Shown here piece by piece: positions 5,612-47,607 of a DNA stretch of 64,000 nt. The stretch's first letter is position 1. Each line of letters opens with the position of its first letter. The position numbers and the translations under genes were made by a program. The stretch comes from Alphaproteobacteria bacterium. GTDB taxonomy: Bacteria; Pseudomonadota; Alphaproteobacteria; Micavibrionales; UBA2020. The stretch spans positions 719,396-783,395 of the forward strand of contig JAEUKT010000002.1 in assembly GCA_016794125.1 (NCBI GenBank). Direction: 5' to 3'. The notes beneath the pieces are model-generated. The model was not told where the DNA came from and made no database searches. It was given only the letters and a program-made list of their open reading frames with translations.

Positions 5612-5655
5612 GCTCCCTGCAAGCGGTTGAATTTCCCTATTGTTTTTGAAATCTG

Positions 5656-7147: not shown

Positions 7148-7155
7148 GCACCGCC

Positions 7156-8682: not shown

Positions 8683-8683
8683 C

Positions 8684-9955: not shown

Positions 9956-9964
9956 GGAGAGCGC

Positions 9965-16409: not shown

Positions 16410-16424
16410 GTCACTTCTCCGTCA

Positions 16425-25142: not shown

Positions 25143-25424
25143 GGATTCGCCCTCATGTTTAACGATGGCCAATTCTATCACGTGATTGCTTATGAAAAGG
25201 TAAAAGCCCGGGTGATTCTATATATGATGCAGGCTGACGGGTTAAAACGGGCAAAACACGCGGCGTAATCTGGCTCTAAGTAACTGAAATTAAATGGGAA
25301 TAAATTATGCTCAAGTTAATCATATCTTCATTGACTTATGCTCTAATGGATTATATATCTTATACTCAGAGAGAGCAGAAAACGGTCCGGCCTTAAAGGG
25401 ACCGAAAATTCAGGAGCCCAAAAG

Positions 25425-26444: not shown

Positions 26445-26472
26445 TAACAAGAAGAAAAAAAGGACTACCGCC

Positions 26473-28071
26473 ATGACCGCAGAAATCAAAGACAAAGCAG
26501 ACGTCGTTATCGTTGGATCGGGCGCTGCCGGATTGTTCGCAGCATTGACGCTGGCACCCCGCCGCGTATTGGTGCTCTCCGAAAAGCCCCTCGGCGGCGT
26601 TTGCGCTTCGGCCTGGTCGCAGGGCGGTATCGCGGCGGCGGTCGCGCCCGAAGACACCACCGAAAGCCATGTCGCAGATACCCTGAAGGCTGGCGCAGGC
26701 ATCACCGATGTCGATGTCGCGCGTACGCTGGTAGAAGCTGCCCCAAAATACATCGAACTGCTGGATAAATACGGCGTAAAATTCGAGCGCGACGAAAACG
26801 GCGCATATAAACTCTCCCGCGAAGCCTGCCATGCCCGCCGCCGCGTCTTGAAGGCCGCAGCCGGCGACGGTTTCGGCGCCGAAATGATGCGCGCACTGGT
26901 CGAAGCCGTGCGCAACACCCCCTCGATCGTCTATGTCGAAGGTGTTTCCGCCGAACGCCTTGTCCGCCGCGACGGCGCGACGATGGGCGCGGTGCAGGGT
27001 GTCCTCTGCCGCCGTCTTGCCGATGGCAAAGCGGTTGTTTATGCCGCTCCCGCCGTGCTGCTGGCGACCGGCGGTCTCGGTGGCCTGTTCGCCGCAACAT
27101 CGAACCCCTTGCATGCGGTCGGCCGTGGCGTTGCGATGGCGGCGCGCGCGGGCGCGGTTCTGTCCGACCTCGAATTCGTGCAGTTCCACCCGACCGTGCT
27201 GGATATCGGCGAAGATCCCGCCCCCTTGGCGACCGAAGCGCTGCGCGGCGAAGGCGCATACCTTGTCAACTCGCGCGGCGAGCGCTTCATGCTGGATTAC
27301 CATGAAGCAGCCGAACTCGCCCCCCGCGACGTTGTCTCGCGCGGCATCTTCGCGCAAATTCAAAAGGGCCAAAAAACCTATCTGGACTGCCGCCATATCG
27401 ATACCGCGCATTTCCCTGCGCTGCTGCAGGCGGCTGGCCGCGCAGGATTGAACCCGAAACGCGACCTGATCCCCGTCATGCCCGCTGTGCATTACCACAT
27501 GGGTGGCGTTGCGACCGACCTGAACGGCCGCGCATCGCTGCATGGCTTGTGGGTGGCAGGCGAAGCCGCCGCAACCGGTCTGCATGGCGCGAACCGCCTT
27601 GCATCGAATTCGCTGATGGAAGCGATCGTGATGGGCGCGCGCGCTGCCGAAGATATCGCGGCGTTTGTCGCGAAGGGCCAGCCTGCGCCCCGCATCAACC
27701 TGTCTGACCTTCCGAAACTGCCCGCAGCCGACATGGACAACGAACGCCAACAGCTGCGCGACATCATGACCGACCTGGTCGGCGTGATCCGCAATGAACA
27801 GGGCATGAAGGACGCGATCCGCGAATTGTCCGTCATCGGCGCGAATGCCGAAACCCGCGACACCAAAACCGCCGATATGGCGCTGGTCGCCCGCATGATC
27901 GCTTCCTGCGCGCTTGCCCGCACCGAATCACGCGGCGGCCATTGCCGCGCCGATTACCCGATGCCGGTGAAAGCGTTCCAGAAACGCACCTTCACCACGC
28001 TGAAAGAGGTTGAAGGCATCACTGCGACCGCGCTACTCTCCCGCAAAGCCACGCGCGAAACCGCAGCCTAA
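26473..28071 (+). CDS. nadB: L-aspartate oxidase NadB
   Basis: Start at the ATG at 26473 (AAGGA 8 nt upstream). FAD-binding VVIVGSGAAGL and the NadB pattern (AQGGIAA, HPT, YHMGG, LWVAGEAA.TGLHGANRLASNSL, ESRGGH). Confidence 0.9.
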   Translation: MTAEIKDKADVVIVGSGAAGLFAALTLAPRRVLVLSEKPLGGVCASAWSQGGIAAAVAPEDTTESHVADTLKAGAGITDVDVARTLVEAAPKYIELLDKYGVKFERDENGAYKLSREACHARRRVLKAAAGDGFGAEMMRALVEAVRNTPSIVYVEGVSAERLVRRDGATMGAVQGVLCRRLADGKAVVYAAPAVLLATGGLGGLFAATSNPLHAVGRGVAMAARAGAVLSDLEFVQFHPTVLDIGEDPAPLATEALRGEGAYLVNSRGERFMLDYHEAAELAPRDVVSRGIFAQIQKGQKTYLDCRHIDTAHFPALLQAAGRAGLNPKRDLIPVMPAVHYHMGGVATDLNGRASLHGLWVAGEAAATGLHGANRLASNSLMEAIVMGARAAEDIAAFVAKGQPAPRINLSDLPKLPAADMDNERQQLRDIMTDLVGVIRNEQGMKDAIRELSVIGANAETRDTKTADMALVARMIASCALARTESRGGHCRADYPMPVKAFQKRTFTTLKEVEGITATALLSRKATRETAA

Positions 28072-28083
28072 GGAGATACCCGC

Positions 28084-28947
28084 ATGACCTCGCTTCCCGC
28101 ACCGCTGCCGATGGTGATTTTGGAACCTTTGGTGAAAATGGCGCTGGCCGAAGACCTTGGCCGTTCCGGCGATATCACCAGCAATTCGACCGTGCCCGCC
28201 GAAACGCGCAGTCGCGTCGTCATCGCCAGCCGCGAGGAAGGGCGCATCGCGGGGCTCGACCTTGCCGAGCTTGCCTTCAAGCTGGTCGACCCGACCCTCA
28301 GCGTCAAGCGCCTGAAACCCGAAGGCGCCGATGTGAAAAAGGGCGACGAGGTGATGGAGGTGGAGGGCAAGGCGCGCTCGATCCTGACCGCCGAACGTGT
28401 CGCGCTCAACTTCGTCGGCCGCATGTCGGGCATCGCAACCCTCACGCTGAAAATGGTGCGCGCGGTGGGCAACCACAAGGCGCGTATCGCGGCCACCCGC
28501 AAAACCACCCCCGGCCTGCGCGCGATTGAAAAATACGCGGTACAGGTGGGCGGCGGTATTCCGCACCGCTACGGCCTTGATGACGCGGTGCTGATCAAGG
28601 ACAACCATATCGCCATGGCAGGCGGCGTTAAAATTGCGATCCGCAATGCGAAACAAAATATCGGCCATACCGTGAAAATCGAATGCGAAGTCGACACCCT
28701 CGCCCAGTTGGAGGAAGTGCTGGAGGAAGGCGTCGATATCGTCATGCTCGACAATATGAGCCTTGATGACATGGTGGCAGCCGTGAAGCTGGTTGCTGGC
28801 CGCGCGGTGATCGAGGCTTCGGGCGGTGTCACGCTCGACCGCATCCCGAAAATCGCGGCAACGGGCGTTGACCTTATATCTTCGGGTGCCGTCACCCATA
28901 GCGCGCCCAATTTCGATGTGGGCCTCGATTACAAAACGGCTGCCTGA
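28084..28947 (+). CDS. nadC: Nicotinate-nucleotide pyrophosphorylase NadC
   Basis: NadC pattern (ERVALNF..RMSGIAT, TRKTTPGLR..EKYAV..GGG..HR.GL.D..LIKDNH, MLDNM, EASGG). Confidence 0.9.
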   Translation: MTSLPAPLPMVILEPLVKMALAEDLGRSGDITSNSTVPAETRSRVVIASREEGRIAGLDLAELAFKLVDPTLSVKRLKPEGADVKKGDEVMEVEGKARSILTAERVALNFVGRMSGIATLTLKMVRAVGNHKARIAATRKTTPGLRAIEKYAVQVGGGIPHRYGLDDAVLIKDNHIAMAGGVKIAIRNAKQNIGHTVKIECEVDTLAQLEEVLEEGVDIVMLDNMSLDDMVAAVKLVAGRAVIEASGGVTLDRIPKIAATGVDLISSGAVTHSAPNFDVGLDYKTAA

Positions 28948-29056: not shown

Positions 29057-30718
29057 ATGGCTGATTCTGTCGCTCCGGCCCCCGTCACCGAAACGGGTTT
29101 TGACCCCGGAATGATCAACGAATTCAAAAAAGGCATTTTCTACCGCGACCCCGAGCGTGTGAAGCGTGCGCTGGAGGCGAAAGTCGAGGCCGATACGCCG
29201 GTCAAGGGCCGCCATCCGCTGCATATGCTGATCGGTTTCGACCACAGCGACATGCCCGAAGACATCCGCCGTTCCATCAGCGAAGACGATTTCGAAGCGC
29301 GCACAACCGCCATCGTCAACATGCTGTTCGACCACGGTGTGAAAGTGGCCGAACCAGAACGTTACACGACGCGCAATTACAGCGTGCTGGCCGACCGGTT
29401 GCTGCTGGCCGATAACCTGGCCGATCTTTCGACCGTCGTTGTCCATGCGATCGATGAATCGCTGGCGCAGGGCGGCAAGCCGTACCAGCCCGACCCGAAA
29501 AAAATCGTGCAGGCATCGTTGCAGGGCGCCGGTGAAAATATCGACATCATCGGCCATGTGAATTCGGTGCTGACCGCGCTGGAGCGTTTGCACAACACGG
29601 TCGTCGCGCGGCTGCAAAACCCCACATCGGAACTTGAAAAGCAGATTGTCGCGCAGCACGGCCCGCAAGTGCGTGAATTTTCCAAGCCGTTCCGCCGCCC
29701 GCCCGTGCGCAGCATCATCGAGGATTTGTTCCCGCAAGGGCAGGTGCCGCAGGAAATCGACGACGCGCTGACGCATATGAACGGCGCGTTCAGCGGCCGC
29801 GGCCGCAACACGCCCGGCGAATATGTGTCGCAGCTTGAAAAGAAAACGCCGCAGCAGGTGCTGAGCGAAATCAAGGAAACCTTCGTCGGACTGAACGAAT
29901 TGAAGAACGAAGCGCGCAGCCTTGTGTTCCGCCAGAGCTTCGATGCGGCCACCAAGGACACAGCGTCGCCCGACCGCGTCTATGGCGAGGTCATCATGGG
30001 CAATGAAGGTCTCGGCAAATCGGAATTCCTGCGCAAGAAAGCGGAACTGCTGGTCGCGCTCGACCTTGCAGGCGATAAATACGTCGAATTTTCGCAGCGC
30101 AATTCGGGTGCCGCCAGCATCGGCCTGCCGCCAAAAGCTTTGGCCGCAATCTTCGCGCAGGCCGACATCATCAATCTTGAAATTCCCGAACCCATCAATG
30201 ACGGCCGCCCCGATATCGCCGATTTCGGCAAGCGTTTGATCGGCGCGCTGCAGCTGTCGCTGGAAGGCCGGGAAAAACCGCCCGTGCTGCTGCTATCCGG
30301 CAAGCCCGAAACAATCGGCGAGCTGCTGGCGGCGAACCCCGCGCTGAAACCGCTGATCGGCGGCTATACGAAACTGGAAGACATGAAATCCGAAGACCTG
30401 TCGGAAATCCTGCAGCGCAAGCTGAAGGATGAATTCAAGCTGACGATTGCCCCCGATGCGCTGGAGCATATCCTTAAATCCGTCGAAAACACGCGCAAGG
30501 ATATCGGGTCGAAGGATTTCACCAACGCCTATGAAATCGCCAATATCGTGACGCGCCTGCCCGATGCGGTGGCGACGCGCGTATTGGGCGCGGATACGCC
30601 CGGCGATCCGCAAAGCCCGGAAAACCGCGTGGTGACGCTGGAGGATGCAAAATCTCTCAACCTGCGCAAGATACTGGCGGGACCGCTGCTGGCCAGGAAG
30701 CAGGGCATCGGTTTCTGA
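29057..30718 (+). CDS. CbbX/SpoVK-like AAA+ domain protein with an unknown ~280-aa N-terminal region
   Basis: Walker A GNEGLGKS. The C-terminal half parallels CbbX/SpoVK (PPVLLLSGKPETIGELLAANPALKPLIGGYTKLEDMKSEDLSEIL). The Walker B position reads IINLE, not hhhhDE. Confidence 0.55.
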   Translation: MADSVAPAPVTETGFDPGMINEFKKGIFYRDPERVKRALEAKVEADTPVKGRHPLHMLIGFDHSDMPEDIRRSISEDDFEARTTAIVNMLFDHGVKVAEPERYTTRNYSVLADRLLLADNLADLSTVVVHAIDESLAQGGKPYQPDPKKIVQASLQGAGENIDIIGHVNSVLTALERLHNTVVARLQNPTSELEKQIVAQHGPQVREFSKPFRRPPVRSIIEDLFPQGQVPQEIDDALTHMNGAFSGRGRNTPGEYVSQLEKKTPQQVLSEIKETFVGLNELKNEARSLVFRQSFDAATKDTASPDRVYGEVIMGNEGLGKSEFLRKKAELLVALDLAGDKYVEFSQRNSGAASIGLPPKALAAIFAQADIINLEIPEPINDGRPDIADFGKRLIGALQLSLEGREKPPVLLLSGKPETIGELLAANPALKPLIGGYTKLEDMKSEDLSEILQRKLKDEFKLTIAPDALEHILKSVENTRKDIGSKDFTNAYEIANIVTRLPDAVATRVLGADTPGDPQSPENRVVTLEDAKSLNLRKILAGPLLARKQGIGF

Positions 30719-34218: not shown

Positions 34219-35157
34219 TCAGTTATTTACGACCGAAAGGGTTGTAATGGTCGGGAAATGGTCGCTGCCGATATCGGGCCCGCGCCGGAAGCTGCGCACC
34301 TGCAGATTCGCCCCCGCCAGCACATGGTCGATGGGCAGATGCAGCAGCGGCGTCGGCAAAAAGACGGGGAAAGTGCCGCACAGCCCCTGGCCTTCGCGCG
34401 CGTTACGCAGGCCAAGCGCCTTCACCAGTTTTTTATAGGCGTAGCAATACGGTGTCGCGTTCAGGTCGCCCAGCACGACGATATTTTCGCGGCGCTGGCC
34501 GAAATGTTTTACCGCCATCGCGAATTCATGGTTGCGCGCGCGGATGTTCTTGTTCGGCGTTTCGGGGTGCATCGACAGGAATTCGATTTCCACGCCGTCA
34601 TGATGCAGGCGGAACGCCATGCTCAGGCTCGCCTTGCCGGCAAAGCTGAGATATTCATGCGACGCAAACGGCGTTTTCGACAGCACGGCCATGCCGTAGC
34701 GGTCGTCGCGCGGCTCCAGCAGTTGGTGCGGATATTCGTTTTGCAGGTCGCGGAACATCAGCGCGAATTTGCCGTTCACTTCGCAGGCCACGATCAGGTC
34801 GGGCTTTTCTTTTTCGACCAGCGATTTCAGTTTCGCCGTGTCCATGTTGCGCATCAGCACATTCGCCTGCAGGATTTTCAGCGGGCGGCCCTGTTCCTCC
34901 AGCGGTTCATGCATGCGGCCGAAGGACAGGTATCCCACCATCTGCGCAAGGCTCAGCAGCAGCGCGAGCGCCAGCAGGAAAAACACGTTCGGCATAGAAT
35001 ATACGGCGGCGGCGACCGGCACGGTCAGGATAGCGCCGATGGCGTATTGCAGCGGAAAATGGCTGGGCAGGTCGGTTTCATGGCGCGATATGCGCAGATA
35101 GGGCGTGAGGCTCGCGAAGAAAAGCAGCAGCGCGACAATGAAAACAAGAACCGTCAT
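34219..35157 (-). CDS. Membrane-anchored endonuclease/exonuclease/phosphatase (EEP) family protein
   Basis: N-terminal TM helices plus the EEP pattern (LKILQANVL..N ; VVLGDLNATP ; PIDHVL ; GSDHFP). Confidence 0.75.
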   Translation of the reverse strand: MTVLVFIVALLLFFASLTPYLRISRHETDLPSHFPLQYAIGAILTVPVAAAVYSMPNVFFLLALALLLSLAQMVGYLSFGRMHEPLEEQGRPLKILQANVLMRNMDTAKLKSLVEKEKPDLIVACEVNGKFALMFRDLQNEYPHQLLEPRDDRYGMAVLSKTPFASHEYLSFAGKASLSMAFRLHHDGVEIEFLSMHPETPNKNIRARNHEFAMAVKHFGQRRENIVVLGDLNATPYCYAYKKLVKALGLRNAREGQGLCGTFPVFLPTPLLHLPIDHVLAGANLQVRSFRRGPDIGSDHFPTITTLSVVNN

Positions 35158-36110
35158 GATTTCGCCTTTATCGATATTTCCGTGACTGTGGGCAGGTGGT
35201 CGCTGCCGATCTGCGTTGCGGTGCTGAAATTATGCACGGCAATCGTACTGCTGACCAGCACATGGTCGATGGGGATGCGCAGGAAAGGCGTTGGCAGAAA
35301 CGTGGGCCAACTGGGATAAATGCCGAAACCGTCGCGGGCATTGGCGAGGTTCAACTCTTTCACCAGCTGCTTGTATGCCGTACAAAACGGCGTGGCATTG
35401 AAATCGCCGAGGATAACCAGGTTTTTGGCGGGTGCTTTCTTATACCGCTCTGCAATCAGGCGGAATTCATTGTCGCGGCGTTCGATATTTTCGGTTGGGG
35501 TGAAGGGATGGATGGAAACAAAGGTCACATCCTGCCCGCCAACCGTCACGGTGAAAACCTGCGACGGCACACCCTTGTGGTCGAAATGGATGCGCTCCGG
35601 GTTAACGAGTTTTCGTTTTGAAATAACACCCAGCCCGCGCGGGTTGCCTTTCTGCGGGTGCAGGTCCTGCCACGGATAATCTTTTTTCAGGCTTTCAAAC
35701 ATCTGCGCAAAAACAGGCGGCGTTTCGGAACTGACGACAATATCGGGCTGTTCCTTTTCGATCAGCGCTTTCAGCAAGGCCGGGTCTTTGTTGATGAACA
35801 ACACGTTCACCTGCATCAACTTCAGCGTTTCGCCCTCCGGTGCCGGTTTTGTGACCGGCAGGTATGGCAGCAGCGTATAGGATGACAGGCAGAACAGGAA
35901 TGCTAGCATCGCCAAGACCGGTTTCGGCGATTTGAACAGCAGGCCCAGCGCGAACAGCGCAACCGCGCCCAGCGCGTATTGCGTCATGAAATGGCTGGCA
36001 AGATCGGTCAGCTGGAACGGCGCGGGCATCGTCGCCGCGACCACCAGCACCGCAAACGGCGGCGTGACAAGCGATACAGGGTCGCGGAATGACGGGCGGC
36101 GTTTTTCCAT
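35154..36110 (-). CDS. Membrane-anchored EEP family protein (tandem paralog)
   Basis: Same architecture and motifs (LKLMQVNVL ; VILGDFNATP ; PIDHVL ; GSDHLP). 4-nt overlap with the downstream paralog. Confidence 0.75.
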   Translation of the reverse strand: MEKRRPSFRDPVSLVTPPFAVLVVAATMPAPFQLTDLASHFMTQYALGAVALFALGLLFKSPKPVLAMLAFLFCLSSYTLLPYLPVTKPAPEGETLKLMQVNVLFINKDPALLKALIEKEQPDIVVSSETPPVFAQMFESLKKDYPWQDLHPQKGNPRGLGVISKRKLVNPERIHFDHKGVPSQVFTVTVGGQDVTFVSIHPFTPTENIERRDNEFRLIAERYKKAPAKNLVILGDFNATPFCTAYKQLVKELNLANARDGFGIYPSWPTFLPTPFLRIPIDHVLVSSTIAVHNFSTATQIGSDHLPTVTEISIKAKS

Positions 36111-36588: not shown

Positions 36589-37812
36589 TTACGCTGCTTT
36601 ACGCATCGCGACGTTCAGGTTGCTGATCAGCTTGTCCATGAACTGTTCGGTGGTCAGGTGTTTTTGATCCGGGCCGATCAGCAGCGCGAGGTCTTTGGTC
36701 ATGTCGCCTGCTTCGACCGTCGCCACGCAAACGCGTTCCAGCGTTTCGGCGAATTCCACCACATCGGGCGTGTTGTCGAACTTGCCGCGATATTTCAGAC
36801 CCTGCGTCCACGCAAAGATGGATGCGATGGGGTTGGTGGATGTCGGCTTGCCCTGCTGGTGCATGCGGTAATGGCGCGTGACCGTGCCATGCGCCGCTTC
36901 GGTTTCAACCGTCTTGCCGTCGGGCGTCAGCAGCACCGAGGTCATGAGGCCGAGCGAGCCGAAGCCCTGCGCAACGGAATCCGACTGCACGTCGCCATCG
37001 TAGTTTTTGCAGGCCCACAGGAATCCGCCTTCCCATTTCATCGCGGATGCGACCATATCGTCGATCAGGCGGTGTTCATAGGTCAGGCCGGCCTTGTCGA
37101 ACTGCGCCTTGTATTCGGTGTCGAAGATGCGCTGGAAGATATCCTTGAAATCGCCGTCATAGGCCTTCAGGATCGTGTTTTTCGTGGACATATACACGGC
37201 CATCTTGCGCTGCAGGCCATAGGTCAGGCAGGCGCGGGCGAAGCCTTCGATGGATTCCGTGGTGTTGTACATGCCCATCGCGACGCCGGGGCCGTCGAAG
37301 TTATGCACGTCCCATGTTTTCTTCTCGCCGCCGTCTGCGGGCTCGAAGGTCATGGTCAGCTTGCCTTTGCCGGGCACCTTGATGTCGGTCGCGCGGTACT
37401 GGTCGCCGAAGGCATGACGGCCGATGACGATGGGTTTCGTCCAGGTCGTCACAAGGCGCGGCACGTTCTTGCAGATGATCGGCTCGCGGAAGACGGTGCC
37501 GTTCAGGATGTTGCGGATGGTGCCGTTGGGCGATTTCCACATTTTCTTCAGCTTGAATTCCTCGACGCGCTGCTCGTCCGGGGTGATGGTCGCGCATTTG
37601 ATGCCGACGCCGTATTTCTTGATCGCGTTCGCCGCATCGACCGTGATCTTGTCGTCGGTCGCGTCGCGGTTCTGGATGCTGAGGTCGCAGGAAACAAGCT
37701 CGATATCCAGATAGGGCGTGATCATCTTTTCGATGATCATGTCCCAGATGATGCGGGTCATTTCGTCGCCGTTCATTTCGACAACGGGTGTTTTTACCTT
37801 GATCTTACTCAT
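36589..37812 (-). CDS. icd: NADP-dependent isocitrate dehydrogenase (eukaryote-like type)
   Basis: [23 protein letters not shown].. and the full-length IDH pattern. The second ATG (37812) is preferred because AAGGAG is 10 nt upstream. The alternative start is 37821. Confidence 0.9.
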
Positions 37813-38452
37813 TGAAGCCATGCTCCTTCTTTGGACGGGTGGATTGTGACGGTTGCGGTTTCGGTTTCTGGCCGGTGCCGCCCAGAACCTTGGGCGTATC
37901 GGCGTCGTTCAGTTTTGCGGCTTCGCGGGCGGCCTGCGCGTGTTCGCGCTCCTCCGCCAATGCCTGCTGGCGTTTCGATTTCCAGTCGTTCATGTCTTCG
38001 CGCGCGCTGCGGATATCGTCCTTCGACAGCTTGGCGTCCTTCACCAGTTTTTCGCGCGCCTTGTCCGACCATTTGCGCTCGCGGCTGGTGCCGTCATCCA
38101 TGCTCAGCGAATACCATTTGTATGCGCCCACATAATCCTTGTTGCGCTTGGCCATCGCGGCCAGGCGGATGAACGCCATGGTGTAACCCTTGCGCGCGGC
38201 GGTTTCGAACCAGTAGCGCGATTTCACCTGGTTCTTGGCAAGCCCGCCTTTGCCCTTGCCATACAGGTCGGCGATAATGAACTGCGCGCGCGTATCGCCC
38301 TGGTCGGCGAGATTCACGAGGTCTTCCATCGGATGCGGATCTTCCGGCGCCAGCTGCTTGTAGACCGGGTCTTCGTAATAGCGCACGCCGGCGGCCTGCG
38401 CGCCGCTTGCGAAAACAACCATCACGAATGTCAGAACCAGCACGCGTATCAT
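37805..38452 (-). CDS. Sel1-repeat secreted protein
   Basis: Start at 38452 ([20 protein letters not shown] signal). Sel1 repeats ([47 protein letters not shown]..). The C-terminus is basic and Pro-rich. Confidence 0.75.
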
Positions 38453-38766
38453 TTTGCCTCGTCGAAAAACTGCAGCACTTCGGACAGCGAAGGGCTCTGC
38501 TTCAAAGTCTTGTTGCCCGAATACACCGCGTATTGGGACGGTTTCAGGAAACTGCGCGACGGGATTTTCGCAATCGCGTAAAGCGGCGTTTCCTTGGCCG
38601 AACGGTAAATGGAAAACAGCGCCATATCGGGCAGGCTGTCGATGGCGTAATCGCGCCACTCGCCCTTTTTCACGCGGTCGCCGTACAGGCCAAGGATCAG
38701 GCTCAGTTCCCCTTGGGAAAACTGTGCCTTGCCTTGCGAGAATTTGTCGCGAAAATAGAGGAGCAT
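38449..38766 (-). CDS. Conserved hypothetical protein (DUF2794-like guess)
   Basis: 105-aa ORF with clean coding composition. ATGA overlap with the Sel1 gene. Confidence 0.55.
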   Translation of the reverse strand: MLLYFRDKFSQGKAQFSQGELSLILGLYGDRVKKGEWRDYAIDSLPDMALFSIYRSAKETPLYAIAKIPSRSFLKPSQYAVYSGNKTLKQSPSLSEVLQFFDEAK

Positions 38767-39399: not shown

Positions 39400-40025
39400 A
39401 TATCGCACTACGTAACAAACGTAACGTAACGCGTGCATAACATTTCGTGACATTTCAAAACACGGCCATGTAACGAAACATCATTCTGCGACTCATGCGA
39501 AAATGTTGCGCCGCATCAGGAAATGCGGGGTTTCGTGTACCGCGCGCATGCGGATTTTAATTACAAATCACGCATCATTCTTCGCTGATAATTACAAAGC
39601 GTTGCCACGCATTTGTCTAAAATTTTAATTATCCGTCAAATCGCCAAACGTAAACCGCTGTTAACCAACCGGGGCTTATCCTGAAGATATAAGCATGAGT
39701 TCAAATCAAGGATTCAGCGATGACAGGCACAGATGCGAAGCAACCGGCCCTGAACGGGGCCGTCTCTGCACATGTTACGGGTGAAATTTGTAACGCGACC
39801 GTCACGGGTATGCCTTTGGGTATCGCCGCGCCTTGAACAGCGCGGCGATTTTCTTTGGCTGCAGCTTCGCGCAGGAAGAAAGCGGGGAAGACGCATGAAG
39901 GCACAGACGACTTACTAACGGCTCAACAAAAAAAAGAAACGAACCATGCCCGGGCGGATTTCCCCGGCCCGGGCAAAGCCGTCCCATGTCGAAAATTCAA
40001 CAACAAAAAAAGAAGAGGCACAGCC

Positions 40026-41840
40026 ATGACCACCGAAAAACTGGAAACACCGAAAAAGAAAAACAACAAACATCTGCGCAGCGGCGTCGCCATGCTGCTG
40101 GCATCCGCCGCGCTGATCAGCCTGCCGTTCCTGCAGCAATCCATGCAGGGCAGCATCAGCAACGGCAGCCTGATGAAAATCAATGCAGCGTCGCTGCAGA
40201 TGGACAGCGTGACGATTTTTGGCGACGGGGGCGGAGGCTATCGCGGCGGCGGCGCGACCACGTTCCGCGATATGTCGAGCAATATGATTACCGCCTCCAG
40301 CGGCTTCCGTAACCTGCTGCCGAATTTCACGGCTGCCCAGCAGCCCTATGTGGCACCCGTGCGGGTGCAAAACGATTACGTCGCGCCGCCCTATTATCAG
40401 GAACAGGGGCGCGACAAATCGCCTGCCTATGCCGATAATCCGGTCAAGAAAACATCGGCCGAACCTGTCTCCACTTTCTCCATCGATGTCGATACCGCAT
40501 CCTACAGCTTTATCCGAAAGGTACTGGAACAGGGGCGCCTGCCGGACAGGGATAATGTGCGAGTGGAGGAACTGATCAATTACTTCCCCTATGATTACGA
40601 GGTGCCCAAGGATGTGCGCGACCCGTTCAAGCCGACGGTCGCGGTCTATCAATCGCCGTGGAACGCAGATAAAAAACTCCTGCATATCGGCATCAAGGGC
40701 TATGAACTGCCGTACCGCCCCAAATCGAACCTTGTGTTCCTGATCGACACATCGGGGTCGATGAACACGCCAGACAAACTGCCGTTGCTGGTCAGCTCGT
40801 TCAAGCTGCTGCTGGATACGCTCGGCGACGACGATACGGTGTCGATCGTCAGCTATGCCGGCGGTGCGGGTGTCGCGCTGGAACCGACCAAGGCGGCGAA
40901 CAAGCGTAAAATCCGCGACGCGCTCGATAGTCTTTATGCCGCAGGATCGACGGCGGGCGATGCGGGGATACAGGCGGCCTACCGTCTGGCCAAGGAAAGC
41001 TTCGTGCCGGAAGGCAATAACCGCGTGATACTGGCAACCGACGGCGATTTCAATGTCGGCATCAGCAACAGCGAGGACCTGAAAAAATTCATCGCGGAAA
41101 AACGCGACGACGGCATTTTCCTGTCCGTGATGGGTTTCGGGCAGGGTAATTACCAGGACACGACGATGCAGGCGCTGGCGCAAAACGGCAACGGCAACGC
41201 GGCCTATATCGACAGCCTGAACGAGGCGCGCAAGGTATTGTCCGAAGAATCCGGATCTACCCTGTTCACGATTGCGAAAGACGTGAAGATACAGGTCGAA
41301 TTCAACCCGGCGCTGGTGCGCGATTACCGGCTGGTGGGCTATGAAACCCGACATCTGGAACGCGAAGATTTCGACAACGACAAAATCGACGCGGGTGAAA
41401 TCGGCGCGGGGCATACGGTGACGGCGATCTATGAAATCACGCCCGCCGCCGCGCCGGTCATGGCCGGCCTGCGGTACAAGCAGGAGGATTCCGAAGCGGC
41501 AGCGGCGGCGGATAATGCGTCCGGTTTCGGCAATGAAATCGCCTTCCTGAAACTGCGCTACAAACAGCCCGACGGCGACCGCAGCTTCCTGATGACGCGA
41601 CCCATCACCGGCGAGGATGAAAAGCCCTTCGCCGCGCTTTCCGACGATGTGCGGTTCGCGTCGGCGGTGGCGGGCTTCGGCCAGTTGCTGCGCCGCGGTC
41701 GCGATACCGGCAGCCTTGACTGGGACAGCGTCATCGACATGGCGAAAAACGCGCGCGGCGACGATCCCTATGGGTACCGCGTCGAATTCGTGAATTTGGT
41801 CAAACTGGCAAAAACAACGGGAAGGAGTGATGGACGATAG
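40026..41840 (+). CDS. von Willebrand factor type A domain protein (YfbK-like)
   Basis: N-terminal anchor; VSTFSIDVDTASYSFIR..VRVEELINYFPYDY; VWA MIDAS motif NLVFLIDTSGSM. Start at the ATG at 40026. Confidence 0.85.
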   Translation: MTTEKLETPKKKNNKHLRSGVAMLLASAALISLPFLQQSMQGSISNGSLMKINAASLQMDSVTIFGDGGGGYRGGGATTFRDMSSNMITASSGFRNLLPNFTAAQQPYVAPVRVQNDYVAPPYYQEQGRDKSPAYADNPVKKTSAEPVSTFSIDVDTASYSFIRKVLEQGRLPDRDNVRVEELINYFPYDYEVPKDVRDPFKPTVAVYQSPWNADKKLLHIGIKGYELPYRPKSNLVFLIDTSGSMNTPDKLPLLVSSFKLLLDTLGDDDTVSIVSYAGGAGVALEPTKAANKRKIRDALDSLYAAGSTAGDAGIQAAYRLAKESFVPEGNNRVILATDGDFNVGISNSEDLKKFIAEKRDDGIFLSVMGFGQGNYQDTTMQALAQNGNGNAAYIDSLNEARKVLSEESGSTLFTIAKDVKIQVEFNPALVRDYRLVGYETRHLEREDFDNDKIDAGEIGAGHTVTAIYEITPAAAPVMAGLRYKQEDSEAAAAADNASGFGNEIAFLKLRYKQPDGDRSFLMTRPITGEDEKPFAALSDDVRFASAVAGFGQLLRRGRDTGSLDWDSVIDMAKNARGDDPYGYRVEFVNLVKLAKTTGRSDGR

Positions 41841-41887
41841 ACCCTGACATTCTGACGGACACCTAGAAACCCCAAATGAGTGAGCCG

Positions 41888-41925
41888 TGCCGCCCCGCAC
41901 GGCTCACTTTCTTTTAATATTATGG
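41888..41925 (+). terminator. Intrinsic terminator
   Basis: 11-bp stem GTGAGCCGTGC/GCACGGCTCAC with a 6-nt loop, followed by TTTCTTTT. Confidence 0.7.
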
Positions 41926-42004: not shown

Positions 42005-43174
42005 ATGTCCGAATGGGACGAGCTTGAACCGCATGAAAAACGCTACAAGCTGGCGCAGGATCCTGCCGCCGCCGCGCGCATCGTTGCGGCCGACAAAAAA
42101 ATGATCGCGGCGCTGCTATCGCACCCCATAGACCTGAAAAACCTGCGCGACGCGCTGAAGGACGACGCTAATCCCGACCGCCACATCATCAACGGGTTTC
42201 CGGCCCTGCATGTGGCGATTGAAAAACATGACATCAAGGCGCTGGAAATCCTGCTGCGCTATTCCGCCAGCACCGACGACATCGACGCAGAGGGTCAGGT
42301 CGCGCTGGATGTCGCGCATCGCCGGCATTTCAAGGAAGCGGTGAAGCTGCTGGAACTGCACGGCGCGGAAACACGTCTCGCAAAGGGCGGCGAGCCCGAC
42401 CTCAGCGATATCTATGCGCCCAATTACCAGCGGCGCATCAATAACCTGCTGACCGAAATGGTGCGCAAGGGCACGCCGGAGCAGGTGCAGCAGATGATCG
42501 ATCTGGGCGCTCAGGTGAACCATATCGACCCGCATTCCAATCCCGGCTTCCCCGCGCTGCATCACGCGGCCTGCTTGTGCGATGTCGAGAAAGTGAAAAT
42601 CCTGCTGGCGAACGGCGCAGACCCTTTGCAAAAATCCACGCGCGGCCATGACGTGACCGACACGATGTGGCAGGCGCGGGTTGAAAACCTTTACAGCGGC
42701 AAATGGCTGGAAATCCATGATCTGGTGCGCAAGGCGGGTTACACGAACCTGTTCGACCGTCACCCGCTGCAGCTGGATGCGAACGACTTGCGGCAGAAAG
42801 TCGTCATCAGCGGCAAGGAAGACCCGACGCTGATGCAATACCTTGTCGATAACAAACAGGCCGACAGGGTGCTGGAAATCCTTGCCCGCGACGCATCCGC
42901 GCCGCTGACCGCGCAGGAACTGACGCAGCGCCAGACAGCCCCCGGCATGATGCGCAGCACGCTGCTGGAATCTTTCGGGCGCGAAGGAAAGCTCAGCCGC
43001 ATTTTCACCGCCGCCGTCTGGCAGGGCAGGGTCGATGAAATGCTGTCGCTGCGCGGCGCGGTCGAAAAAAACCCGATGTTCAAGCCGCAGGTCGATTTCG
43101 ACGCGGCGTATCACGACGTGATGGCGCAACGCCTGAAAATACTGCGCCAAAAAGCGCCGAAACTGAAATTGTAA
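42005..43174 (+). CDS. Ankyrin-repeat protein
   Basis: Several ANK units (FPALHVAIEKHDIKALEILLRYSASTDD ; FPALHHAACLCDVEKVKILLANGADP). The start is uncertain (alternatives 41933 and 41960). Tail: ..LKILRQKAPKLKL. Confidence 0.75.
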   Translation: MSEWDELEPHEKRYKLAQDPAAAARIVAADKKMIAALLSHPIDLKNLRDALKDDANPDRHIINGFPALHVAIEKHDIKALEILLRYSASTDDIDAEGQVALDVAHRRHFKEAVKLLELHGAETRLAKGGEPDLSDIYAPNYQRRINNLLTEMVRKGTPEQVQQMIDLGAQVNHIDPHSNPGFPALHHAACLCDVEKVKILLANGADPLQKSTRGHDVTDTMWQARVENLYSGKWLEIHDLVRKAGYTNLFDRHPLQLDANDLRQKVVISGKEDPTLMQYLVDNKQADRVLEILARDASAPLTAQELTQRQTAPGMMRSTLLESFGREGKLSRIFTAAVWQGRVDEMLSLRGAVEKNPMFKPQVDFDAAYHDVMAQRLKILRQKAPKLKL

Positions 43175-43190
43175 AGGGAGATGCAGCAAC

Positions 43191-43895
43191 ATGGCTTCCG
43201 CAAAACAGATTGATAAAGCAGTCAGCGAACGCGATATCGCGGCGCTGGAAAAATATATCGACGCGGGCGCGGATGTGAACCGCCGCGATGCGGACGGCAA
43301 CACGCTGCTGCATCACGCCGCGCGTTTCGGCGCGCTGGAACTGGTCGAAAAACTGGTCGCGAAGGGCGCGAAAACCTTCACGCATAACAACGACGGCGAA
43401 AGCCCGTGGGATACCGCCGTGATCTGGGGGCAGGACGCGGTCGCGTCGCGGCTGCAGGACGCCCTGCGCGCGGAAATGAAGGCGGCGGCGGAAATCGAAA
43501 AAATTTCCTATACCTCGTTGCAGCAGATCCGCGACGCATCGTCGAAAAACGGCGCGAGCGAATTCCACGCGCTTGCATCCAAAGGCCTGTTCGCACAAGT
43601 GATCGCGATTGCCGAAAAAGACGGCGGTTTTTGCGCCGCCGACCTGCTGGAAAAAGGCCGCGATGGCACGACCGTTATTCTGAAACTTGCGCAGCAGGGC
43701 AGCCTTGGCAGTCTGCTGAAGCCCGCGCTGTGGAGCGCGCGCCCGAATGATTTTCAGAATGTGTGGCTGAACGTGCCGAAAAATTACCGCGACGGCCACG
43801 ATTACGACGGCTTTGTCAGCGGTTTGCGTCAGGCAAAATTGCAGTCTTATGCGAAACCGAAACTGCCGGGCCTGGGGCGCGGTCCGAAACTGTAA
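43191..43895 (+). CDS. Ankyrin-repeat protein
   Basis: ANK units (GNTLLHHAARFGALELVEKLVAKGAK). AGGGAG upstream of the ATG. Tail: ..SYAKPKLPGLGRGPKL. Confidence 0.8.
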   Translation: MASAKQIDKAVSERDIAALEKYIDAGADVNRRDADGNTLLHHAARFGALELVEKLVAKGAKTFTHNNDGESPWDTAVIWGQDAVASRLQDALRAEMKAAAEIEKISYTSLQQIRDASSKNGASEFHALASKGLFAQVIAIAEKDGGFCAADLLEKGRDGTTVILKLAQQGSLGSLLKPALWSARPNDFQNVWLNVPKNYRDGHDYDGFVSGLRQAKLQSYAKPKLPGLGRGPKL

Positions 43896-43977
43896 TACGC
43901 AACTTTCTGCCCCGTTCAAGATATTGCCAAGGGTGCCGCCGCTTCCTACGATAGATGCAGATCGGAGTAAGCAGCAC

Positions 43978-44733
43978 ATGACACTCACGAAATCGCAGAA
44001 ACTACTTTTCAATGCCGTCCGCACCGGCAGCCTCGCGCAGGTCAAGGCGCAGCTCAAGAAAACAGGCAATATCGATTTCGAGGGCGATTACGGCCGCACC
44101 CCGCTGGAGGAAGCGATTTTCCACGGCAAGGTCTCGATCGTGAAGGCGCTGGTCGAAAGCGGCGCCGATGTGAACCGCGTGAACGACAACGGCCAGACGC
44201 CGCTCGACTACGCGAAATTCCACAAGGAAACCAAAATCGCCACCTACCTGAAATCCGAAGGCGCGGAAAAGGCCGACGATATCGCATCGCGCCAGCGTTA
44301 CAGCCGCTACGCCGAATATGACGATGACGATAATTACTTCTTCAATTCCTACGGCGACGATGACGATGATTTCAAATCGAACGCCCGCGCGCCCAAACGC
44401 AGCGCCGCGAAAAAATCAAAACCGAAAACCGCCACCGCCAAAAAATTCACGACTGCCGCAGAAGGCGGCGTGGAGCTGCCGACCGAACCTGTAAAACCGA
44501 AATTCACCGAAGAATCGCTGAAGGATATCTTCAACGCGAAAAACTGGGTCGGCAAGACGGACGACATGGAAAAGCTGTGGACCGATGTGCCGGAAAAGCT
44601 GCAAAAGAAATTCGATTTCGACGCCGCCTTCGCCGAAGCCAAACGCGAAACCCTGAAACAAAACGCGCCCCATGCGCCTACGCTCAAGAAAACGCTGACA
44701 CCGCCGCCGCAAAACACGCCGCCGGCGGTTTAG
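43978..44733 (+). CDS. Ankyrin-repeat protein with acidic and Lys-rich C-terminal half
   Basis: Start at the ATG at 43978 (GGAG 10 nt upstream). ANK units (GRTPLEEAIFHGKVSIVKALVESGADVN..GQTPLDYA). A poly-Asp stretch is followed by RAPKRSAAKKSKPKTATAKK. Confidence 0.8.
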   Translation: MTLTKSQKLLFNAVRTGSLAQVKAQLKKTGNIDFEGDYGRTPLEEAIFHGKVSIVKALVESGADVNRVNDNGQTPLDYAKFHKETKIATYLKSEGAEKADDIASRQRYSRYAEYDDDDNYFFNSYGDDDDDFKSNARAPKRSAAKKSKPKTATAKKFTTAAEGGVELPTEPVKPKFTEESLKDIFNAKNWVGKTDDMEKLWTDVPEKLQKKFDFDAAFAEAKRETLKQNAPHAPTLKKTLTPPPQNTPPAV

Positions 44734-44765
44734 TCGGGTTGAAGTTACTTCTCAACAGGGAATAA

Positions 44766-45344
44766 TTAAGGCAGCGGCGGCGCTGGCGGCAGCGATCCGC
44801 CGGGTTGGCTCATGCGGAAACGCTCGGGCAGTTCGAACATGCCGGGTTTCGCCTTGCGGGCGATCAGTTGCGCGATCACGTCGTCGTAGTCATTGACGCG
44901 CGCGGCGGCCTTGTCGACCGTGCTGCGGAAGGTGAAGCGGGATTGCTCCTTGCGGCTCAGTTCGTTTTCAAAAAAGGAATGGCTCAGCAGGGCGTAATCC
45001 ATCGGCGTGTGGCCGGCCTCGTCCTTGGCATGGGGGTCGGCGCCGTATTTCAGCAGGTAATGCACGATATCGGGCGCGCCCAGCAGGCAGGCGGCATGCA
45101 GCGGCGTTGCGCCCACGCCATAGGGCACGTTGACCATCATGTTCGACAGCATGCCGCGCGACGTTGTGCGCGCATCAAGGTCGGCGCCTTCGTCGATCAT
45201 GTTGGCGACGACATGCAGCTTGCCGCTCTCCACCGCCTGGAAAAACAGGTTGGTGCCGTGGCGGTTGATGGTGTTGATCTCCGCGCGGCGCTGTTCGGCC
45301 TTGTCGGCGGGGGATTTGCGGTTAAACGGCAATCTTGCGGACAT
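44766..45344 (-). CDS. Ankyrin-repeat protein
   Basis: Start at the ATG at 45344 (GGGAG upstream). ANK units (GTNLFFQAVESGKLHVVANMIDEGADLDA ; GATPLHAACLLGAPDIVHYLLKYGADPHAKD). Confidence 0.8.
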   Translation of the reverse strand: MSARLPFNRKSPADKAEQRRAEINTINRHGTNLFFQAVESGKLHVVANMIDEGADLDARTTSRGMLSNMMVNVPYGVGATPLHAACLLGAPDIVHYLLKYGADPHAKDEAGHTPMDYALLSHSFFENELSRKEQSRFTFRSTVDKAAARVNDYDDVIAQLIARKAKPGMFELPERFRMSQPGGSLPPAPPLP

Positions 45345-45553: not shown

Positions 45554-46273
45554 ATGTCGGACGTGATGCAGGAAGTGAACGACGAACTCCGCCAGCAAAG
45601 GCTGGAGGCGTTCTGGATCGAGAACCGCAACTGGATCATCGGCGGCGTTATCCTGGCGATCGTCACGACCGCAGGCCTCACATGGTGGCGCGGCTATACC
45701 TACAAACAAGATATGGCGCGCACGACCCAGCTGATGGCGGCGATCAAATCCGAAGACGCAAAATCGCTGACCGATTTCGCGGCGCAGTCCGGCAAAAACC
45801 ACGCGGCGCTGGCGAAGCTGTCGGCGGCGGGCCTGCATGTGAAAAACGGCAACCCCGCGCGCGCGATCGAACTGTATGCCGAAGTCGCAGGCAGCATGTC
45901 CGCCGACCGCGAACTGCGCGACCTTGCGAAAATCCTCAGCCTCAACCTGCGCCTTGGCACGGAAGACCCGAAAAAGCTGCACAAGGAACTGGCCGATATG
46001 TCGGGCGCGAAAGAACCCTACCGCTACACCGCGCTGGAAATGGACGCGCTGGTCTATGCGGGCGAGGGCAACATGAAGGACGCGGCCGCCAAGCTGGAGG
46101 CGATTTCGTCGAGCCCCGATGCGCCCGAAGATTCCCGCCTGCGCGCCACCACGCTGCATGAATTCTACGCGGCATCGGCGAATGAATCCGTCCCGTTCAA
46201 AAAGGACGCGGCAGCGTCGGATAAAAAGGACGCGCCCGAGAAAGCCGTTCCCGAGAAAGCAGCGAAACCCTGA
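45554..46273 (+). CDS. YfgM-like membrane-anchored TPR-like protein
   Basis: N-terminal pattern (..ELRQQRLEAFWIENRNWIIGGVILAIV..) and the conserved position upstream of bamB-der. Confidence 0.6.
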   Translation: MSDVMQEVNDELRQQRLEAFWIENRNWIIGGVILAIVTTAGLTWWRGYTYKQDMARTTQLMAAIKSEDAKSLTDFAAQSGKNHAALAKLSAAGLHVKNGNPARAIELYAEVAGSMSADRELRDLAKILSLNLRLGTEDPKKLHKELADMSGAKEPYRYTALEMDALVYAGEGNMKDAAAKLEAISSSPDAPEDSRLRATTLHEFYAASANESVPFKKDAAASDKKDAPEKAVPEKAAKP

Positions 46274-47607
46274 TGAAACAGCTCCCCCGCATCGCCGCAT
46301 CGCTCGCCCTTGTTCTTGCCCTATCGTCCTGCGCCAAGGTGAAATCCATGTTCAGCGACGAAGACCTGACGCCGCCCCTGAAGGGCGAGCGCATTTCGGT
46401 GCTGCAGCTGCAGAACGACCTGGTGCCAAACCCGGAGCTGAAGGATGAAACGGTCGAGCTTCCCGAAGCCTGGGTCAACCAGTTCTGGCCGCAGCGCGGC
46501 GGGTACCCGAACCATGCGCTGGGGCAACTGGAACTGGGCGACAAGCTGGAACGCGTCTGGAAGGCATCGATTGGCGGCGGCGGCGACAAGCGCAACCCGC
46601 TGACTGCAACGCCCGTGGTCGCGGAAAACACCGTCTATGCGCTCGATACCGAAGGCCATCTTTCCGCCTTCAACCTGCAGGACGGCAAGCGCAAATGGCG
46701 CAAATCCATCGTGCCGAAAAAGAACGAAGACGACGGCGCGGTCGGCGGCGGGCTTGCCTATGCCTCGGGCCGCCTGTTTGCGACGAACGGCTATAAATAT
46801 TTGCAGGCGCTGAACCCCGCGACAGGCGCGCAAATCTGGCGCGCCGACCTGCCGGCGCCCGTGCGTTCCGCCCCCACCGTGATGGACGACCGCGTCTATG
46901 CCGTCACGCTCGATAACCGCCTTGCCGTTTTCAACGCCAAGGACGGCACGCCGCTCTGGGATCATGCGGGCGTCAGCGAAACGACGAACCTGCTGGGCTC
47001 GGCTTCGCCCGCGGCCGATGCGACGCTGGTCGTGCTGCCGCTGTCATCGGGTGAAATCTTCGGCCTGCGCCCCGAAAACGGCCAGATCGCATGGGAAGAC
47101 AACCTGTCCGCCGTGCGCCGCAACGGGTCGATCGATTCAATCTCCGACATCAAGGCGCTGCCCGTGATCGACCAGAACGTGGTCTATGCGGCCAGCTTCT
47201 CCGGCCGCATGGTCGCGCTCGACCAGGTGACGGGCAGCCGCATCTGGCAGCGCGAAATCGGCTCGACCGAAACGCCGTGGGCGGCGGGCGACACCGTCTA
47301 TGTCGTATCTTCCGACCAGCAGATGATCGCGCTCACGCGCGCCGCCGGCGATGTGCGCTGGATCACGCCGCTGCCCCGTTTCGAAGACGGCGACCGCGAA
47401 CAGCCCGTCGTCTGGTCCGGCCCTGTGCTGGCGGGCGGCCGCCTGATCGCCGTGTCAAGCGACGGCAACATGGTCGAAGTCAGCCCGCAGGACGGCAAGA
47501 TCCTGCGCAAACAAGAATTGGGCGGCAACGCCACCCTGCCGCCGCTGGTGGCGAACCAAACCCTGATCGTCCTGACCACGGACGGCGTGTTGCGGGCTTA
47601 TCGGTAA
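46273..47607 (+). CDS. bamB: Outer-membrane assembly lipoprotein BamB (PQQ-like beta-propeller)
   Basis: Lipobox LSSC, repeated beta-propeller blades (..G.l.A.d..tG...W) and a position upstream of der. Confidence 0.8.
   Translation: MKQLPRIAASLALVLALSSCAKVKSMFSDEDLTPPLKGERISVLQLQNDLVPNPELKDETVELPEAWVNQFWPQRGGYPNHALGQLELGDKLERVWKASIGGGGDKRNPLTATPVVAENTVYALDTEGHLSAFNLQDGKRKWRKSIVPKKNEDDGAVGGGLAYASGRLFATNGYKYLQALNPATGAQIWRADLPAPVRSAPTVMDDRVYAVTLDNRLAVFNAKDGTPLWDHAGVSETTNLLGSASPAADATLVVLPLSSGEIFGLRPENGQIAWEDNLSAVRRNGSIDSISDIKALPVIDQNVVYAASFSGRMVALDQVTGSRIWQREIGSTETPWAAGDTVYVVSSDQQMIALTRAAGDVRWITPLPRFEDGDREQPVVWSGPVLAGGRLIAVSSDGNMVEVSPQDGKILRKQELGGNATLPPLVANQTLIVLTTDGVLRAYR

Follow-up and report, generated by a model that had tools for sequence, protein, structure and literature searches.

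The question raised by the locus described here is what part four adjacent ankyrin-repeat (ANK) genes play in an alphaproteobacterium of the order Micavibrionales, and whether their products could be delivered into other cells. The genes, designated A1 to A4, lie at 42005-45344 of a 64,000-nucleotide stretch of DNA (GenBank assembly GCA_016794125.1, contig JAEUKT010000002.1, positions 719,396 to 783,395 of the forward strand), which is referred to below as the window. The start of the same window holds a partial Dot/Icm-like gene set that an earlier, model-generated reading of the letters (here, the original prediction) had missed. We propose A1-A4 as core effector candidates of a chromosomal Dot/Icm-like type IVB secretion system (T4BSS), a reading to which we assign a probability of roughly 45%.

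The A1-A4 locus and its inheritance

All four open reading frames (ORFs) were recovered, and each exceeded the Pfam gathering scores of the Ank_2, Ank and Ank_4 models (E values for Ank_2 from 6e-10 to 3e-19); the gene calls for A1-A4 were identical on the public contig L001, an independent assembly of the same organism. A1 (42005-43174, forward strand) encodes 389 amino acids (aa; Pfam Ank_2 E 6.6e-13) and ends with a conserved segment, termed the W-module below, and the tail KAPKLKL. A2 (43191-43895, forward; 234 aa; Ank_4/Ank_2 E ~5e-10) also carries the W-module, while A3 (43978-44733, forward; 251 aa; Ank_2 E 1.1e-11) combines an acidic/basic linker, the W-module and a Pro-rich tail. A4 (44766-45344, reverse; 192 aa; Ank_2 E 3e-19) is without the W-module. 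The cluster is flanked on the left by a YfbK-type VWA gene (39855-41840) and on the right by a TPR_21/YfgM-like gene (45554-46273) and a BamB gene (46273-47607), followed by Der. The original prediction had described four ANK genes at this position with no other gene type among them, a VWA gene and a yfgM-bamB-der block as flanks, and an A3 with a poly-Asp run followed by a Lys-rich stretch, and on all of these points the ORF calls, the Pfam annotation and the A3 translation agree with it.

A2 starts 16 nucleotides (nt) past A1 behind a GGGAG ribosome-binding site and is probably in the same operon as A1. The gap between A2 and A3 is 82 nt, and a forward-strand terminator is predicted in neither gap; the short distances and the absence of a predicted terminator therefore suggest that A1, A2 and A3 form one operon. 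A4 is convergent to A3 across a gap of 32 nt and is separated from yfgM by 209 nt. The AlphaFold2 model of A1 (predicted local distance difference test score, pLDDT, 88.3; predicted template modelling score, pTM, 0.82) consists of paired helices throughout, which is an ANK-type solenoid, and its best Foldseek matches were DARPins and ankyrins (E ~1e-9).

Orthologous loci were gathered by exact look-ups and by a scan of species-representative genomes. The relatives that have the cluster are labelled Micavibrio, Bdellovibrionales or Alphaproteobacteria, NCBI taxonomy placing Micavibrio under Bdellovibrionales. At all fetched loci the gene order was IsoDH, Sel1, DUF2794, (AhpC), (variable), A1, (small ANK), A2, A3, (variable), A4, YfgM, BamB, Der, CDF and SDR. 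The original prediction had pictured the cluster as wedged in between its flanks and had proposed a comparison with related genomes in search of an insertion; once the comparison was run, the cluster proved to be present with conserved synteny in every related genome fetched, only the interval between AhpC and A1 being variable, and the insertion was thus not upheld. That interval holds the VWA gene, a cytosine/purine transporter gene, both or neither, depending on the genome. The GC content of the cluster (0.57-0.60) is like that of its surroundings, no tRNA gene was found by a tRNA scan of the 64-kb window (an Rfam scan was also empty), and no integrase or transposase was present among the flanking genes scanned. 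The possibility of a genomic island was accordingly rejected on the grounds of synteny in all related loci, normal GC content and the lack of tRNA or mobile-element borders. On sequence comparison, the four-gene cluster is best regarded as an old, vertically inherited core locus.

Across the fetched loci, identity to the window proteins was 37-100% for A1, 38-100% for A2 (found in every locus), 31-100% for A3 (missing only in L021) and 43-100% for A4, as against 85-99% for IsoDH and 71-89% for Der over the same evolutionary distances; in one example A1 was 47% identical where Der was 76% and IsoDH 89% identical. A1-A4 thus diverge faster than most of their housekeeping neighbours, a pattern that would fit effector-like evolution. 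Homologue searches returned 35 full-length orthologues of A1 (41-99% identity) and, for A4, a tight orthologue group of 183-205 aa (46-99% identity) confined to this lineage. Beyond the same-lineage orthologues, the A1 and A4 searches retrieved only generic ANK proteins (E ≥ 1e-8) and no known effector family.

The low-complexity linker of A3 (44317-44448, forward; residues 114-157, YDDDDNYFFNSYGDDDDDFKSNARAPKRSAAKKSKPKTATAKKF) consists of poly-Asp runs and then a Lys-rich stretch, and this composition, an acidic run before a basic run, is kept in orthologues. It includes KPKTATAKKF, which is similar to the APKTASF motif found in the tails of other ANK proteins of the genome (see below). A WH2/thymosin-like reading of the A3 'TLKKT' with the Pro-rich tail was tried and rejected, there being no Pfam WH2 match at E ≤ 5; LKK itself is restricted to the window and its nearest relatives, other orthologues having LGK, LKP, LAA or LQN in its place. 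A4 ends in a tail of the form K(P/T)GMFxLPExF followed by PPxP, which is conserved among its orthologues.

A functional link between the VWA gene and A1 was likewise rejected. A strong intrinsic-type, terminator-like hairpin with a 13-bp stem and a T tract (41878-41909, forward) lies 3' of the VWA gene and would separate its transcription from that of A1; moreover, L006, L008 and L009 have no VWA gene, and in L042 other genes stand between it and A1. Two tandem Exo_endo_phos (endonuclease/exonuclease/phosphatase) genes (34219-36110, reverse) are kept upstream of IsoDH in all related loci.

Dot/Icm-like genes and the tails of the ANK proteins

Four signature genes of a type IVB system follow one another on the forward strand near the window start. 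The gene for a DotD/TraH-type lipoprotein (1000-1506) matches NCBIfam NF033882 with an E value of 1e-30, below the equivalog cut-off, and Pfam DotD was assigned to the identical gene on L027, a longer contig from the same species. It is followed by a DotC/TraI-type gene (1484-2656; Pfam PF16932, E 4e-71), members of whose cluster are named DotC by JGI. The DotB-type ATPase gene (2635-3891) matches TIGR02524 DotB at E 4e-115 as compared with E 5.5e-73 for plasmid TraJ, both below the equivalog cut-offs, and the IcmT/TraK family gene (3912-4202) reaches 85.7 bits with NF038220, for which the cut-off is 40. Upstream are a partial DsbG-like gene (9-398; NCBIfam DsbG NF008657, E 9.5e-12) and a lytic transglycosylase gene (409-867; NCBIfam TrbN NF010463, E 7.8e-23), and downstream is a TcpQ/PilL-like gene (4331-5611; Pfam TcpQ, PF10671, on the identical L027 gene).

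The association of this dot segment with ANK genes was also seen outside the window. In a relative whose A1 is 53% identical, a single scaffold of 700,971 bp carries both the dot segment and the A1-A4 cluster about 40 kb apart (38 kb in the window), and the dot locus of this relative runs ClpB, GNAT, three ANK genes, Dsb, lytic transglycosylase, DotD, DotC, DotB, IcmT and TcpQ. The DotB, DotC, DotD and IcmT clusters with at least 90% identity to the window have members on contigs of 1,349,295, 3,300,255, 344,437 and 2,411,079 bp; these lengths match those of four contigs with orthologues of A1 or A4, which suggests that dot and ANK genes are linked in four more genomes. In L031, which was found by a DotC metagenome scan that returned six short contigs and in which DotC is 58% identical, the dot segment stands beside ClpB without ANK genes. 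With DotB 79% identical in L031 and at least 90% identical across several metagenome-assembled genomes, the segment matches housekeeping genes in its degree of conservation. Plasmid DotC proteins in PLSDB are at most distantly similar, the nearest, from Methylosinus, Kozakia and Acetobacter plasmids, being only 35-39% identical, and in the Methylosinus plasmid inspected the T4BSS genes form a single contiguous block. From these comparisons, the dot segment is chromosomal and old.

Directly downstream of the dot/icmT/TcpQ genes, and in the same place in the divergent relative L039, are four tandem paralogues (5723-11302, forward) of 423-512 aa with 24-30% mutual identity, signal-peptide-like N-termini and conserved Cys residues. 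They gave no Pfam, NCBIfam or PDB match and nothing useful with Foldseek, and may be unrecognised parts of a secretion apparatus.

The ANK genes around the dot segment are more numerous than previously described. The original prediction had counted six in 64 kb, adding two genes at 24.1-25.1 kb to A1-A4. The first of these, B1 (24112-24672, reverse; 186 aa), is a clear ANK protein (Pfam Ank_2 E 1e-13; ending in ...SAPKTARFKKAKQTP); the second, B2 (24669-25181, reverse; 170 aa; ending in ...AAPKTASFSKGPGRTA), which overlaps B1 by 4 nt, has no Pfam ANK match at E ≤ 5, so that the count held for B1 and not, by this measure, for B2. With 30% identity to B1 (E 6e-7), B2 is nevertheless a degenerate paralogue of it. 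Four further ANK genes, C1-C4, were found on contig L027 (positions 1-10000), in the 8.5 kb that immediately precede the window, between ClpB and a GNAT acetyltransferase gene on one side and the DsbG-like gene on the other. Ten ANK genes are therefore spread over ~72 kb, and the true density is above that originally claimed.

Many of these proteins have related C-terminal tails: ...SAPKTARFKK... in B1, ...AAPKTASFSK... in B2, ...VAPRTASFGK...KLNL in C2, ...SAPKTASFGN...GFSI in C3, ...PAPKKRDFSL in C4, ...KAPKLKL in A1 and ...AKPKLPGL... in A2. The regular expression [AKP]P[KRT][TLK]..[FL], applied to the last 30 residues, was matched by seven ANK proteins (A1, A2, B1, B2 and C2-C4) and by 0 of 68 non-ANK proteins, counts which are descriptive and do not amount to a test, as the expression was written after the sequences had been seen; in ~19,000 residues of non-tail sequence it occurs only twice. 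Independent support comes from the relative with the 53% identical A1, in which all three dot-adjacent ANK proteins end in ...AP[KR]TASFG[NQ]K...GF[SR]L. Small extra ANK proteins within the A cluster of other genomes end in ...KKKPAPRLK.. or ...KKPVSFKKN. The ANK tails were more basic than the other tails of the window (one-sided Mann-Whitney p=0.018), the net charge of the last 25-30 residues lying between 0 and +6 (over the last 25, +4 in A1, +6 in A2, +3 in A3 and 0 in A4). By a Kyte-Doolittle scan, a simple method and not SignalP, no signal peptide or transmembrane segment was detected in A1-A4, B1, B2 or C2-C4, and one was detected in C1.

C-terminal tails were noted in other proteins of the window as well. 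Six tandem small ORFs (57076-58619, forward) encode coiled-coil-like proteins of 77-97 aa with no family match. Four of the six end in ...DLNPxLDKPVKL(A/P)(A/P)P.., the first and fifth have the variants DKPAKLGAPK and DKPKLGAPVK, and the sixth is more divergent; the basic KP.KL..PK tail is reminiscent of those of the ANK proteins. Two paralogues of 462 and 430 aa (60767-62155 and 62385-63677, both reverse), 30% identical and with neither signal peptide nor family match, end in ...GKDFEL and ...QSFDLD, respectively. A promoter-like sequence, TTTTATTGACATAA, was noted by eye upstream of both the 62385-63677 gene and C2 (in L027); inspection by eye of the regions upstream of the ANK and dot genes for a regulatory DNA motif gave nothing beyond this sequence in two genes.

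A shared C-terminal module

The C-termini of A1, A2 and A3 are homologous over ~57 aa, with a basic tail after the homologous part. The consensus of this W-module is IF.A..W.GR.eEM..LW..VP....K..DFD.A....R..L...aPKLKL. The copy in A1 (43001-43171, forward) reads IFTAAVWQGRVDEM...VDFDAA...RLKILRQKAPKLKL and was detected by a local hidden Markov model (HMM) at E 5e-15; the copies in A2 (43713-43892, forward; LLKPALWSARPNDFQNVWLNVP...DYDGF...LRQAKLQSYAKPKLPGLGRGPKL) and A3 (44527-44712, forward; IFNAKNWVGKTDDMEKLWTDVP...FDFDAAFAEAKRETLKQNAPHAPTLKK) were detected at E 8e-26 and 1.3e-26. The module is the best-conserved part of the A3 family, and in the A1 model it is made up of the final short helices together with a long helix at the C-terminus (residues 365-383). 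At each locus the local HMM detected exactly A1, A2 and A3, and it gave no further copy in the window, translated in six frames, or in the flanks of L001-L024. A Pfam scan of C-terminal fragments holding the module gave no match even at E ≤ 5, the XVIPCD and BID families likewise not being listed.

A word-indexed protein database search with the W-module profile had given 67 candidates and one match, which was uninformative. An exhaustive profile search over 1.84 billion representatives (clusters at 50% identity, E ≤ 1e-3) placed the module in at least 224 protein clusters. Pfam Ank_2 was found upstream of the module in 70 of 81 single-module matches, in which it is nearly always C-terminal. 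About 54 matches carry two or three internal copies in a chain of 450-516 aa, and across the family the number of copies per protein ranges from 1 to 6; in the multi-module proteins each repeat unit combines a pair of degenerate ANK repeats with the module. Downstream of the module, the sequence was basic in all 141 representatives (141/141; mean net charge +4.8), often with a +Phi-x-Phi-x+ pattern such as KLKL, KITFTK or RIVLVK.

The triple-module proteins of ~480-510 aa (e.g. P0058 and P0047) share with A1-A3 the W.GR..EM..LW..VP....VDF signature, the degenerate ANK repeats before it and the basic tail, but differ in having three units per chain, no canonical ANK Pfam match and another gene context. 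P0058 was modelled as a compact solenoid (pLDDT 95.4, pTM 0.86), for which the best structural match in the PDB by Foldseek had an E value of 0.02 and a TM score of ≤ 0.24, and a PDB profile search with the triple-module family gave weak DARPin/ANK matches only. The W-module defines an unannotated protein family of at least 224 clusters at 50% identity, with a very confident predicted fold for P0058 and no solved relative.

The gene context of the triple-module proteins was inspected at two loci of other bacteria with a GC content of 36-46% (L036 3136-11491 and L025 154-5008), where proteins of ~500 aa follow a ~1000-aa P-loop protein, which carries GDPG[MA]GKS and DEYNKS, and a 116-142-aa protein; in L036 this uncharacterised but conserved gene set is preceded by a 1131-aa VWA-like protein and has alphaproteobacterial-type neighbours. 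In a further architecture, P0040 (L026 8001-11525; 1174 aa), five or six W-module units are fused to a BKACE (beta-keto acid cleavage enzyme) domain, with IS66-family transposase genes flanking. By its composition P0040 resembles an effector-like mosaic, and the varied architectures of the family would fit effector-like evolution.

Shared C-terminal T4SS (type IV secretion system) recognition domains are found in the Xanthomonas X-Tfe proteins (XVIPCD) and in the Bartonella Bep proteins (BID plus a basic tail), both of which belong to type IVA (VirB/VirD4) systems. A1-A3 resemble these substrates in placing a conserved C-terminal module and a positively charged tail on differing N-terminal parts, which is an architectural analogy only. 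The W-module, unlike XVIPCD and BID, is ~57 aa long, fused to degenerate ANK repeats, repeatable internally and without a Pfam family.

Effectors, scaffolds or conjugation genes

On the effector reading, A1, A2 and A3 would be transcribed as one unit and A4 convergently. The proteins would be made in the cytoplasm and then translocated by the Dot/Icm-like type IVB system, and the ANK solenoid would serve as a target-binding surface inside the recipient cell. The W-module and basic tail of A1-A3 may be a common element for the secretion machinery or an adaptor, and the AP[KR]TASF...GFSL tails might fulfil the same recognition role in the other ANK proteins of the genome. Delivery could be into a eukaryotic host or, in view of the Micavibrio affiliation, into bacterial prey. 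Among the Dot/Icm substrates of Legionella and Coxiella, ANK proteins make up a major class (Pan et al. 2008, cited in PMC4686830; PMC8896642), and LegA3/AnkH is a core effector in Legionellales (PMC8896642). The effector reading is the most economical one, and it agrees with the precedent of ANK effectors in Dot/Icm systems and with the C-terminal position of T4SS signals. A1-A4 resemble the Legionella and Coxiella ANK effectors (AnkB, AnkX, LegA3/AnkH) in being multi-copy, in lacking a Sec signal, in sharing a genome with dotD, dotC, dotB and icmT, in including a few 'core' members and in having lineage-specific C-terminal regions after the ANK repeats. They differ in showing no sequence kinship beyond the ANK repeats and in having basic rather than Glu-rich tails; the bacterium, too, is different, being a Micavibrio-like alphaproteobacterium outside Legionellales.

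Several observations weigh against the effector reading. The 72 kb examined yielded the four signature genes only, and neither the coupling protein DotL nor DotO, DotA or DotG/H/I/M was seen among them. The tails are basic, whereas Legionella DotM recognises an acidic, Glu-rich/E-block signal, although the interfaces of DotM in other species may have evolved together with tails of another kind (PMC5802825). A3 has 15-70 more residues after the W-module, and in other alphaproteobacteria the module is also internal, occurring 3 to 6 times per protein in proteins of ~500 aa; these internal copies are more in keeping with a structural or interaction domain than with a signal for secretion alone. 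Unusually stable for an effector repertoire, and more typical of core cellular functions, are the one-to-one orthology and the strict synteny across deep divergence, though core effectors are known. For cultured M. aeruginosavorus ARL-13, type I and II secretion systems and no type III or IV were reported (PMC3189940); no orthologue bearing the name M. aeruginosavorus appeared in any of the homologue searches.

The internal copies of the module and the stable orthology also bear on the idea that A1-A4 are never secreted and act as cytoplasmic scaffolds or adaptors within the bacterium, for instance in envelope biogenesis, cell-cycle control or chaperone targeting, with the W-module binding a bacterial partner. 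The one-to-one orthology and synteny hold beside yfgM-bamB-der in all relatives, the internal modules at L025 and L036 stand in a context without a link to secretion, the triple-module protein P0058 is a compact solenoid (pLDDT 95.4), and only part of a T4BSS gene set was found in the 72 kb. We nevertheless consider this role rather unlikely. The yfgM-bamB-der block is widely conserved while the cluster occurs in one lineage only; adjacency is the sole tie to YfgM, BamB and Der, A4 being convergent and 209 nt from yfgM; and such a role gives no account of ten ANK genes, many with a basic C-terminal tail, around dot/icm genes. A related and overlapping view, in which the dot genes belong to an integrated I-type conjugative element, or are what remains of one, and their proximity to ANK genes is coincidental, draws on the same incomplete set of four signature genes, on the lytic transglycosylase and DsbG/C-like genes before dotD, as on IncI-like plasmids, on the TcpQ/PilL-like gene after icmT, and on the nearest annotated DotC relatives in PLSDB, which belong to alphaproteobacterial MPF_I plasmids. 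Those relatives are just 35-39% identical, however, and the segment keeps the same chromosomal site beside ClpB down to 58% DotC identity and is conserved like housekeeping genes, with no relaxase, integrase or tRNA gene nearby. As the Dot/Icm model also gives DotB a higher score than the model for plasmid TraJ does, and as ANK genes with the conserved tail flank the segment in two divergent species, an integrated conjugative element is judged improbable.

Least probable of all, in our estimate, is that the ANK proteins confer immunity or self-protection against the bacterium's own toxins or lytic enzymes, as do Bd3460 and the ANK immunity proteins of polymorphic toxin systems. The lineage is labelled Micavibrio or Bdellovibrionales and is predator-like, and Bd3460 of Bdellovibrio, a small ANK protein of a predatory bacterium, shields the predator from its own DD-endopeptidases by steric binding of its partner (PMC4686830) and is among the weak Foldseek matches of the triple-module model (E 0.5). 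Yet Bd3460 is periplasmic, with a signal peptide and a gene paired with that of the enzyme (PMC4686830), whereas A1-A4 have neither a signal peptide nor an endopeptidase gene as partner; no hydrolase or toxin gene was present in or beside the cluster at any related locus, and four different ANK proteins without a cognate toxin would be atypical.

With A1-A4 retained as effector candidates, the host-associated, effector-delivering lifestyle put forward in the original prediction is supported in part: the T4BSS genes in the window, the linkage of dot and ANK genes and the lack of signal peptides speak for it, while the cluster is not an insertion. Conservation of the cluster in relatives that lack a T4SS, which would have counted against it, was seen in none of the genomes in which this could be checked. 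Because the relatives are labelled Micavibrio, a name given to predators of bacteria, the description 'eukaryote-like effectors' is an assumption. Cultured Micavibrio species are epibiotic predators of bacteria, and if the present reading is true, relatives of an epibiotic predator may be protist parasites, instead or in addition, or may deliver proteins into their bacterial prey.

ANK proteins as T4SS effectors are of a known kind. What is new is that Micavibrio-like Alphaproteobacteria have conserved chromosomal dot/icm genes, a stable four-gene core locus and an unannotated family defined by the W-module and basic tail; a literature search found no description of a T4BSS in Micavibrio-like Alphaproteobacteria, of the four-gene locus or of the W-module family. 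Legionellales and allied intracellular Gammaproteobacteria are the groups for which type IVB systems that inject effectors count as a hallmark (PMC11338181, PMC8896642). It is possible, though doubtful, that the clade has its own ankyrin effector arsenal with a previously unknown recognition element (the W-module and/or the AP[KR]TASF...GFSL tails) and that the manipulation of other cells through a T4BSS would thus have a second, independent lineage beyond Legionellales and relatives; the targets of such an arsenal might be bacterial prey and not eukaryotic hosts. If the ANK proteins are substrates, the clade would offer an effector system that is new and of independent origin, and its simple, recognisable C-terminal tag would lend itself readily to reporter assays and to the prediction of effectors across whole genomes.

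Other genes of the window were noted in passing. Sel1-repeat proteins are encoded at 20892-22337 (forward), 23376-24008 (reverse) and 37805-38659 (reverse) and add to the load of eukaryote-like repeat proteins; one match has 11 repeats (E 7e-74), one reaches 30.5 bits against a Pfam gathering score of 30.7, and one has an E value of 0.14. The context is otherwise ordinary, with FlgL-like and FlgK genes (15399-18506, reverse), an NrtR-type regulator (22345-23352, forward) and nadA-nadB-nadC (25425-28947, forward), and these flagellar, NrtR and nad genes therefore point to a motile organism that is not strongly genome-reduced. A 553-aa protein with no family match (29057-30718, forward) has an ANK-like N-terminus (GRHPLHMLIG) and the tail ...LNLRKILAGPLLARKQGIGF.

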